Origin: Promethearchaeota archaeon | Lineage (GTDB): Archaea > Asgardarchaeota > Lokiarchaeia > Sigyniarchaeales > SOKP01 | DNA: 42,029 bases | Assembly: GCA_019057865.1 (NCBI GenBank) | Contig: JAHLWP010000037.1 | Coordinates: forward strand, 1-42,029 | Reading direction: 5' to 3' | Shown here: piece by piece, positions 11,409-13,598 of the stretch | Numbering within the stretch: the stretch's first letter is position 1 | Layout of the letters: each line of letters starts with the position of its first letter | Program-made: the position numbers and the translations under genes | The notes under the pieces: model-generated | Database searches by the model: none | What the model was told of the DNA's origin: nothing | The model's input: only the letters and a program-made list of their open reading frames with translations

Positions 11409-11813
11409 ATACAATTTGGATCTGATTTAGGTATTAACCATGAAGATATAGAAAAAATAAGTCCGCAAATCACATTTATAACATCTAATGCAGATATAGA
11501 AGCAATTGCACTTGTAAGCGTAGAAGGTTATCAAATAGCTTTCTCTGCTTTGCCCCAGTACCACGTAGATGGTGATCAATTTTGTGGACTTGCTAGTGCT
11601 TTATTAATGACTGGAAGATCAACAATTCAAACATTATTTCAAGAAGATATAACTGAAATAATTGTAAGGGCTGAGAATGGATATATAGTTGTTACTAATG
11701 CAGGACGCTTAGTAATTGTATGTGCGGGGACAATTATTGATACTCTAATGAAAACGGTGAAAGTTATGCGAATAGCAGCAAAGAATCTCTATAAAATTTT
11801 CGAAGGGCGCTAA
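11409..11813 (+). CDS. Roadblock/LC7 (MglB-like) protein; probable ATA start at 11409 (track start 11550)
   Basis: The frame upstream of 11550 encodes DIEAIALVSVEGYQIAFS (roadblock beta1-beta2); also EIIVRAENGYIVV; AGGTG at 11397-11401. Confidence 0.82.
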   Translation: MQFGSDLGINHEDIEKISPQITFITSNADIEAIALVSVEGYQIAFSALPQYHVDGDQFCGLASALLMTGRSTIQTLFQEDITEIIVRAENGYIVVTNAGRLVIVCAGTIIDTLMKTVKVMRIAAKNLYKIFEGR

Positions 11814-11962
11814 ATTATAAATTTCTCTTATTTTTAATCTTCATATTTCTGTGTATTTAGTTGGGCATGAAAGTATTTTATTGTCTTAATTTTATAGAAA
11901 GTACTTTTTAGATCAATTAACTTTTTATTTAATAATAAATAATTAAATCAATAATTTTTACT

Positions 11963-12034
11963 ATGATAATATGGTTTAATTTTATGGCAACTGGAAATTA
12001 TTATTTTTGGCAGTGGCCTTGGTCTTGGTTGTAA
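11963..12034 (+). CDS. Putative Trp-rich leader peptide MIIWFNFMATGNYYFWQWPWSWL (alternative start 11984)
   Basis: Five TGG codons, four of them alternating just before the stop, 154 nt upstream of trpB2. Confidence 0.75.
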   Translation: MIIWFNFMATGNYYFWQWPWSWL

Positions 12035-12096
12035 GACCCATTGTATTGCCTTAAACCATACCTTACTTTCTCTCTTTTCTTAATTTTCGTTTTTCT
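11970..12096 (+). promoter_or_regulatory. Candidate attenuator: nested leader hairpin plus pyrimidine tract
   Basis: TATGGTTTAA(11970-79)/TTAAACCATA(12051-60); GGCAA(11986-90)/TTGCC(12046-50); CAGTG(12011-15)/CATTG(12039-43); GGTCTT(12021-26)/AAGACC(12033-38); C/T tract 12061-12096. Confidence 0.65.
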
Positions 12097-12188
12097 AAAT
12101 TATCGAATACTCTATTTAAATGTGCATTAATTATTTTGATTTCCAATTTAGTAATGAGACACAAAAAATAAGTTGATAAAAAAAGGTA

Positions 12189-13598
12189 ATGAAAATGGTA
12201 AATTATAATAATTCAAGAATTCTATTACAACCCAATGAAATACCGAAGGAATGGGTAAATATCTTACCAGATTTACCCTCTCCTATGACGCCCTTAGTAA
12301 ATCCTATGGATGGGAAACCTGCTCCACCAGAACTAGCATTGGCGATATTTCCAAAAGAATGTGTCATGCAAGAAGTATCTCAAGAACCAATAATTCCCAT
12401 CCCTAAGGATCTAAGGGAAATTTTCGCAAGAACCTATAGACCAAGTCCTCTTCATCGAGCATTAGGATTAGAAAAAGAATTGGGAATAAAAGGTGATGAT
12501 ATTAAGATTTTTTATAAAAATGAATCTGGCTCACCTACAGGGTCCCATAAGCCGAATACAGCGATAACTCAAGCATATTATGCTAAAAAAGATGGAATTG
12601 AAGAATTGGTCACAGAAACAGGAGCAGGGCAATGGGGTTCAGGACTTTCTTATGGATGTAATTTATTTGGTATTAAATGTACAGTATATATGGTAAGAGT
12701 GAGTTTTTTACAAAAACCGGGGAGAAAGATATTGATGAAGTCCTTTAATGCTGAAGTTCATGCAAGTCCTTCGAGACATACCGAATCAGGCAAAAATTTC
12801 TTAGAAAAAGATCCAGAACATCCAGGTAGTTTAGGAATAGCTATATCTGAAGCATTGGAACATAGTTTAAGAAGTAATACAATTAGATATTCTCTTGGAA
12901 GTGTTGTAAATTTTGTTCTTTTACATCAGACAATTGTAGGACAAGAAACAAAAATTCAGTTAGCAAAAGTAGGTATTAATAAACCGGACATAATAATTGG
13001 TTGTATGGGAGGTGGTTCTAACTTTGCTGGATTAATGATTCCTTTTGCAAGAGATAAATTACATGGAGTTCTACCAGACGTAGAAATTATTGGAGTTGAG
13101 CCGCGAGCTTGTCCTAGTGTTTGTAAAGGTGAATATCGCTGGGATTTTGGAGATACTTCTATGAAAGGACCTATTGTAAAAATGCACACGTTAGGTCATT
13201 CGTTTGTTCCAAGCCCGATCCATGCAGGAGGATTAAGATATCATGGGATGGCACCTATAATTTCAATTTTGTATAATAATAAAGTTATATCCGCATCTAT
13301 GCATCATCAATCCGAAGTAATTAAATCCGGTCTTTTATTTTCAAATACTGAAGGAATACTTCCTGCCCCAGAAACTGCACATGCCGTAAAAGAAGCAATA
13401 GATCAAGCTTTAAAAGCCAAAGAAAATAATGAAAAGAAAACAATCGTCTTTAACTTTAGTGGTCATGGCTTTTTTGATTTATTAGCTTATAAATTGTATA
13501 TGACTGGTGATTTGGAAGATTATGAATTACCGACTGAAGAAATCCAAAAAGCATTATCATCAGGAGAAATGCCAAAAATTGATGAATCTCAATTTTAA
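12189..13598 (+). CDS. trpB: Tryptophan synthase beta chain, TrpB2 type (stand-alone)
   Basis: IPKEW.NILPDLP N-terminus, PLP lysine GSHKPNTA, TETGAGQWG, GGGSNFAG, IHAGGLRYHG, PAPETAHA, FNFSGHG. Confidence 0.95.
   Translation: MKMVNYNNSRILLQPNEIPKEWVNILPDLPSPMTPLVNPMDGKPAPPELALAIFPKECVMQEVSQEPIIPIPKDLREIFARTYRPSPLHRALGLEKELGIKGDDIKIFYKNESGSPTGSHKPNTAITQAYYAKKDGIEELVTETGAGQWGSGLSYGCNLFGIKCTVYMVRVSFLQKPGRKILMKSFNAEVHASPSRHTESGKNFLEKDPEHPGSLGIAISEALEHSLRSNTIRYSLGSVVNFVLLHQTIVGQETKIQLAKVGINKPDIIIGCMGGGSNFAGLMIPFARDKLHGVLPDVEIIGVEPRACPSVCKGEYRWDFGDTSMKGPIVKMHTLGHSFVPSPIHAGGLRYHGMAPIISILYNNKVISASMHHQSEVIKSGLLFSNTEGILPAPETAHAVKEAIDQALKAKENNEKKTIVFNFSGHGFFDLLAYKLYMTGDLEDYELPTEEIQKALSSGEMPKIDESQF

Follow-up and report, generated by a model that had tools for sequence, protein, structure and literature searches.

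The stretch of DNA analysed here (the window) comprises 42,029 nt of contig JAHLWP010000037.1 in assembly GCA_019057865.1, from a Promethearchaeota archaeon (Lokiarchaeia; Sigyniarchaeales; SOKP01). The region under study, positions 11970-12096, sits between a roadblock-family gene (11550-11813) and trpB2, whose product scores 631 bits against the TrpB-like enzyme family NCBIfam NF009057 (cut-off 366). An ORF finder places the trpB2 start at 12189, but its relatives align on the second ATG, at 12195, and judging from this alignment the latter is probably the true start codon; a GGTAA motif lies 5 nt upstream of it. The host genome, 99.7% complete, yielded no trpA, trpC or true trpD, leaving TrpB2 as the sole route to tryptophan, with indole presumably as its substrate. 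Among sampled genomes of the order, trpD is present in just 19 of 81, and most of these archaea appear to be tryptophan auxotrophs that salvage indole via TrpB2. The host genome also encodes an orthologue of FttA/aCPSF1 (TIGR03675, 883 bits against a cut-off of 580). A TATA-like box precedes the conserved start codon of the leader by ~60 nt, and the usual archaeal TATA-to-start spacing predicts a transcript start near 11953, so that the outer stem described below would be contained within the transcript. The features of the locus are as follows:

11922..11931, + strand: TATA-like promoter box, the sole conserved block upstream of the leader in a 17-species alignment
11970..11979, + strand: outer stem, 5' arm (10 of 10 pairs, probability 0.92, co-varying arms in relatives)
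11984..12034, + strand: predicted leader ORF, 16 codons (four of them UGG) and a stop (start and stop positions conserved)
11986..12018, + strand: hairpin P0 (11986-11993 with 12011-12018), the predicted fold in most relatives
12021..12038, + strand: stop-codon hairpin P1, identical to the apical stem (-8.2 kcal/mol, probability 0.94)
12039..12050, + strand: spacer from P1 to the outer 3' arm, holding the 3' halves of the middle stems; the 8-nt box of relatives has diverged here
12051..12060, + strand: outer stem, 3' arm (pairing, ensemble probability and covariation)
12061..12096, + strand: pyrimidine (U/C) tract with T runs of 4, 4 and 5, a candidate terminator or FttA-binding stretch (T-rich stretch conserved in 70 relatives)
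12124..12162, + strand: conserved element P3 of the trpB2 5' untranslated region (near-invariant columns, predicted consensus helix)
12185..13598, + strand: Shine-Dalgarno-like GGTAA (12185-12189), then trpB2 (NCBIfam NF009057 and start-region alignment)

Leader-peptide attenuators require a short translated upstream ORF rich in codons for the regulating amino acid, and such an ORF is found here, with UGG at four of its 16 codons and translation predicted. The tryptophan codons of the conserved frame are located at 12008, 12014, 12020 and 12026, and the stop codon at 12032-12034. An earlier interpretation of this DNA, made from the letters alone and referred to here as the sequence-only reading, had proposed the leader ORF, and comparison with relatives bears it out, as the frame of the tryptophan codons and the positions of start and stop are all conserved. 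Among 70 non-identical sequences, 55 have the start codon (ATG, sometimes GTG) exactly 8 codons ahead of the first tryptophan of the block, and the stop follows the last tryptophan by 1-3 codons. Because the spacing from start to tryptophan block is fixed in relatives, the ORF probably begins at 11984 and has 16 codons, rather than beginning at the in-frame ATG at 11963, which would give 23 codons and is not conserved. In three relatives (L010, L053 and L061) a 1-base deletion after the tryptophan block has shifted the frame and lengthened the ORF to 22-24 codons, with the tryptophan codons and the hairpin retained. No convincing second W-x-W-x-W leader was identified in the host genome, the other small frames with this pattern not being leaders of the conserved type.

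In the window, the outer stem pairs 11970-11979 with 12051-12060 by 10 of 10 Watson-Crick pairs, its 5' arm lying 5-14 nt upstream of the conserved start codon. Within it, 11986-11990 pairs with 12046-12050 as middle stem 1, and 12011-12015 pairs with 12039-12043 as middle stem 2, where one of the pairs is G-U; the apical stem joins 12021-12026 to 12033-12038, and RNAfold extends it by a seventh pair, 12027/12032. The middle region may also pair as 12009-12015 with 12044-12050, which is the choice of the RNAfold minimum-energy fold. All four stems and the alternative pairing had been claimed by the sequence-only reading and are present at verified coordinates, as is the claimed arrangement of tryptophan codons in the 5' arm and stop codon beside the apical loop: the last two tryptophan codons occupy the 5' arm and loop of P1, and the stop codon occupies the 3' arm on the 3' side of the loop. 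Ensemble pairing probabilities are 0.92 for the outer stem and 0.94 for the apical stem; in the middle region they are 0.52 for the alternative pairing, 0.37 and 0.31 for the two nested middle stems and 0.07 for P0. Hairpin P0, which pairs the start-codon region with the first two tryptophan codons of the block, is mutually exclusive with both middle stems, and in the window a fold containing it is no more than ~2 kcal/mol above the minimum. The sequence folds at -26.3 kcal/mol, compared to -20.3 +/- 3.1 kcal/mol for shuffled sequences (z = -1.92; 8 of 200 shuffles as good), and in the AT-rich window perfect 10-bp inverted repeats with a loop of 3-100 nt number 62, where chance predicts ~25. 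The single sequence therefore does not establish the structure, and the 10-bp outer stem was rejected as evidence by itself, such repeats being common in the window.

The predicted stems were instead assessed by comparison with about 100 related loci from Promethearchaeota (Asgard) metagenome-assembled genomes from sediments. In an alignment-free test, the 5' and 3' halves of each species were paired and their energies compared to those of 2000 random re-matchings of halves between species. Cognate halves of P1 gave a mean of -8.15 kcal/mol, against -6.20 +/- 0.23 kcal/mol for the random matches, and those of the outer stem -6.89 kcal/mol, against -4.70 +/- 0.25 kcal/mol, with none of the 2000 re-matchings as good in either case. 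P1 is found in nearly all of 67 relatives, in ~30 different stem sequences. The outer stem is strong in ~23 of the 67 species (about a third), and no outer stem was detectable in the largest clade of relatives; the proposal that it encloses the ORF is supported in many lineages. Where it does form, the outer stem would join the sequence just before the start codon to ~20 nt past the stop, such that the ORF is the inside of a folded domain. A column-by-column pair count over 70 sequences found two-sided changes at all nine counted pairs of the outer stem and a whole-structure covariation score of 0.162, above all shuffles and all slid versions. Figures of this kind are inflated by kinship, and more weight belongs to the variety of the stem sequences and to the recurrence of the architecture in the trpD leaders and in the distant family described below.

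Middle stems 1 and 2 fared differently in the same count of 70 sequences, with 52% and 63% of cells paired, respectively, and almost no two-sided changes. They are already broken in the closest relative (L031, 95% identical), because that locus carries the consensus form of the 8-nt box, and they were rejected as conserved elements on the grounds that they are lineage-specific with few two-sided changes. In most relatives the predicted fold is P0, formed from differing 5' sequences. Comparison thus places the conserved predicted partner of the first two tryptophan codons in the start-codon region and not in the spacer after the stop, and the single long hairpin of four nested stems envisaged previously gives way to an outer stem, an apical stem and a separate P0. 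Covariation, which had been named beforehand as a check on the structure, upholds the outer and apical stems and not the middle ones; the outer and apical stems are the only proposed helices that comparison with relatives establishes, at the level of predicted pairing.

An 8-nt box with a consensus close to CATTGGAT occurs 9-16 nt after the leader stop in loci L002-L110, L114 and L134-L136, between P1 and the outer 3' arm. Its sequence is conserved even in the distant family and has diverged in the window. No co-varying pairing partner was found for it; pairing with the loop of P3 was rejected for lack of covariation, the cognate value being -3.96 and the random value -4.14.

The leader is widespread among close relatives. 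A small ORF is located 120-300 nt upstream of trpB2 in all 17 of the same-genus loci first examined and in most of 80 further loci, and the same tryptophan-rich ORF is also found in loci from three other families of the order. These upstream mini-ORFs end in Trp-x-Trp plus 1-3 residues, and stop-codon hairpins are predicted in most of the examined loci from other families of the order. In a distant family of the phylum, all four genomes examined have the tryptophan-rich ORF end, the stop-codon hairpin, the box and a T run, with a leader peptide that ends Trp-Pro-stop. The core leader architecture was not found in one representative each of ~15 other families. Seventeen relatives carry trpD with enough sequence upstream of it to be assessed, and in 14 of them the gene is likewise preceded by a tryptophan-rich mini-ORF; several of these trpD leaders (among L154, L156, L159, L160, L164 and others) match the trpB2 leaders in outer stem, stop-codon hairpin and U run. 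The mini-ORF accompanies both genes, and in every case it lies upstream of the gene and shares its strand. Six loci (L044, L048, L068-L070 and L078) have short trpB2 upstream regions with neither leader nor P3, this control having been lost repeatedly.

The tract at 12061-12096, noted by the sequence-only reading as a 36-nt pyrimidine stretch directly following the structure, contains 32 pyrimidines in 36 nt (89%), a level reached by 3.6e-4 of the intergenic 36-nt windows of the genome. Over the 60 nt after the folded domain in 70 relatives, mean base fractions are T 0.50, A 0.31, C 0.14 and G 0.05, and a T run of at least 5 is present in 56 of the 70 (80%). The corresponding background upstream of genes in the host genome is a T fraction of 0.38, G of 0.12 and a T run of at least 5 in 40%; downstream of long ORFs the T fraction is 0.41, with such a run in 51%. 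On this comparison, a U-rich, G-poor stretch of the sense strand is a conserved part of the predicted element. The first T run of at least 4 begins 0-30 nt past the outer stem depending on the species (14 nt in the window), a variable spacing unlike that of bacterial terminators, in which the U run tightly follows the hairpin. In archaea, termination occurs at U tracts of 4-7 U, and a hairpin is not strictly required (PMC8716108); FttA binds U-rich single-stranded RNA, with the terminator spanning the last 36 nt of the transcript (PMC11616081). Runs of such length, on the sense strand and in U-rich surroundings, are present in the stretch described here, a candidate terminator.

The position of the tract bears on how a ribosome could influence it. 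Between the last base of the stop codon (12034) and the first of the tract (12061), a distance of 27 nt, lie the 3' arms of the hairpins. A ribosome at the stop or at the tryptophan codons covers roughly 15 nt, and since this is less than the 27-nt gap, the ribosome is unlikely to mask or expose the tract directly. The tnaC-like logic suggested by the sequence-only reading, with ribosome position deciding whether the tract is exposed, is not supported at this distance.

Downstream of the U-rich stretch and before the trpB2 ribosome-binding site lies P3, which occupies the same place in L002-L110 and is retained in orthologues that have no leader ORF (L036, L037 and L097). Because it survives without the leader, some of the control may be exerted at other sites. 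Most relatives have a small co-varying hairpin after P3; this second hairpin is missing from the window and from its nearest relatives. For the hairpin predicted downstream of the leader, the probability was 0.65 with the leader free, 0.65 with it blocked at the tryptophan codons and 0.71 with it blocked at the stop, and a classical antiterminator switch was rejected because this hairpin is unaffected by the simulated ribosome position. No conserved, mutually exclusive antiterminator/terminator pair was found, and candidate long-range pairings show no covariation, in agreement with the earlier expectation that this would not be a 1:2/3:4 switch of the E. coli type.

Taken at the level of sequence comparison, these observations point to control of trpB2 by a ribosome-sensed tryptophan leader, of which the region forms the RNA-structure half, a reading to which we give a probability of roughly 0.55. 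The elements that appear from their conservation to be selected are the 16-codon ORF, P1, the outer stem that encloses the ORF, and the U-rich, G-poor and predicted single-stranded stretch. With tryptophan plentiful, the first ribosome would pass the UGG codons and depart at the stop, the domain would close behind it, and a polymerase in the U-rich stretch with no ribosome following would terminate, either intrinsically at the T runs, or through the action of FttA/aCPSF1 on the U-rich RNA, or both. With charged tRNA-Trp scarce, the ribosome would stall at the UGG codons in the 5' arms of the hairpins and hold the domain open, and more polymerases would read through into trpB2. As no second, mutually exclusive helix was found, the stalled ribosome itself would be the anti-terminator. 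The polymerase would be uncoupled from the ribosome whether the latter stalls or leaves, and the model thus depends wholly on RNA folding making a difference; no need for terminator hairpins, nor any response to them, is known for archaeal polymerase. The full proposal, namely true ribosome-mediated transcription attenuation in Asgard archaea, in which a ribosome stalled within an ORF-enclosing domain decides whether a Pol II-like polymerase terminates at a U-rich stretch, possibly by means of the CPSF73 homologue FttA, is accordingly held tentatively, at a little under even odds.

Several other explanations share part of the evidence. The one that survives best, itself unlikely, retains a translated, tryptophan-sensing leader and moves its output to mRNA processing or stability, or to trpB2 translation via P3 and the next hairpin. 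P3 and the hairpin following it are the most conserved part of the untranslated region and include G-U pairs that are sensible on the RNA strand only, and a duplex of -11.1 kcal/mol is available in the window between the first part of the tract and the trpB2 ribosome-binding site. Against this, covariation was seen in none of three cross-species pairing tests, and the persistence of P3 in the absence of the leader suggests that it acts independently. Sequestration of the ribosome-binding site by the outer 3' arm or by the tract, a duplex that exists in the window, was rejected on the same lack of covariation: across species, cognate and random values were -5.70 and -5.91 for the 3' arm and -8.11 and -8.54 for the tract.

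The composition of the leader codons bears on two further, improbable explanations. In the first, the product of the mini-ORF is an arrest peptide for sensing free tryptophan within the ribosome in the manner of TnaC, with the ribosome stalling at the stop or at a proline and not at hungry tryptophan codons. The peptide core is conserved, the proline position uses all four proline codons, which suggests selection on the amino acid, and the peptide of the distant family has the Trp-Pro-stop ending; the residues between the tryptophan positions, however, vary among relatives, and a ribosome at the stop would not reach as far as the tract. TnaC-type logic also induces at high tryptophan, which is ill-suited to the sole tryptophan-making enzyme or to trpD operons that carry the same leader. 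In the second explanation, somewhat less probable again, the UGGC repeats bind a tryptophan-activated RNA-binding protein analogous to TRAP, and the ORF is secondary. The tryptophan block (12008-12031) is indeed a UGGC repeat with a 6-nt period. Of 281 UGG codons in the leader ORFs of 70 relatives, 242 (86%) are followed by C, a base that makes up 13% of codon first bases genome-wide; arginine codons within the block are CGN in 82 of 82 cases, while those preceding it are AGR in 16 of 18, AGR accounting for 68% genome-wide in a host that prefers AGA. The C after UGG and the CGN codons imply a constraint at the nucleotide level in the tryptophan block, beyond that of the peptide alone. Pairing of each GGC of the block with GCC in P0 or P1 accounts for the C without any protein, and no TRAP homologue (PF02081) was found in the 99.7%-complete genome in a search that matched the Bacillus subtilis control. 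The conserved start and stop positions and the in-frame length changes of the ORF likewise argue against a protein-binding repeat.

Least probable of those retained is that the mini-ORF, hairpin and T runs constitute a separate small gene with its own terminator, with the trpB2 promoter lying further downstream. AT-rich, TATA-like strings do occur between leader and gene, for example in the distant family, but no conserved TATA box is present just upstream of P3, and the mini-ORF tracks two different tryptophan genes, always upstream on the same strand. T-box-like tRNA sensing, considered on account of UGG and CCA strings, was dropped in view of the conserved start and stop of the frame.

Returning to the ribosome-sensed leader, it can be compared to several known systems. 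Leader-peptide attenuation is a textbook bacterial mechanism that relies on the coupling of transcription and translation. Like trpL of E. coli and Salmonella (RF00513), the archaeal leader is an upstream ORF with clustered tryptophan codons in helix arms, placed before genes of tryptophan biosynthesis and followed by a U-rich stretch, and the structure occludes the start region of the leader itself. Unlike trpL, it belongs to an archaeal host with a Pol II-like polymerase, no 2:3 antiterminator or 3:4 terminator was found, a single domain encloses the ORF, and the stem is often separated by several nucleotides from a U-rich stretch that is itself long. A cmscan of positions 11500-12500 against Rfam, with E values up to 10, returned no match to RF00513 and two unrelated weak hits. 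In E. coli pyrBI, a single terminator hairpin is blocked by the translating ribosome, and UTP is sensed via polymerase pausing. The logic proposed here is similar in that a ribosome prevents one hairpin and an antiterminator helix is unneeded, and different in that the archaeal element would sense charged tRNA-Trp through ribosome stalling and not UTP.

The E. coli tna operon shares with the present proposal a leader peptide and factor-dependent termination on unstructured, G-poor RNA, FttA being the archaeal functional analogue of Rho (PMC11616081). The two differ in that the stalled ribosome of tna masks a factor entry site adjoining the stop, whereas the archaeal tract is 27 nt away, and in that tna is induced by tryptophan, whereas a biosynthetic gene should be induced by tryptophan starvation. 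The runs of 4-7 U, and a 36-nt U/C-rich stretch equal to the FttA contact length, resemble archaeal U-tract/FttA terminators (PMC8716108, PMC11616081). The known terminators of this type are found at the 3' ends of genes, whereas this one would lie in a 5' leader after a conserved folded domain, and no report of their conditional use was found. Nor was any report of leader-peptide attenuation in archaea found in the literature searched, and a 2021 review of archaeal transcription-translation coupling does not mention it.

The tryptophan leader before this archaeal trpB2 looks, from its sequence and that of its relatives, like a ribosome-sensed attenuator, and if this is true it would be the first amino-acid attenuator in Archaea. 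A conserved, co-varying tryptophan leader across Asgard lineages would offer a mutable test system for the response of archaeal polymerase to nascent RNA structure, and the same leader could be used to test conditional termination by FttA and how closely ribosomes trail polymerase in the sister group of eukaryotes. For the organisms themselves, the leader would mark many as tryptophan auxotrophs that rely on, and regulate, the salvage of indole.
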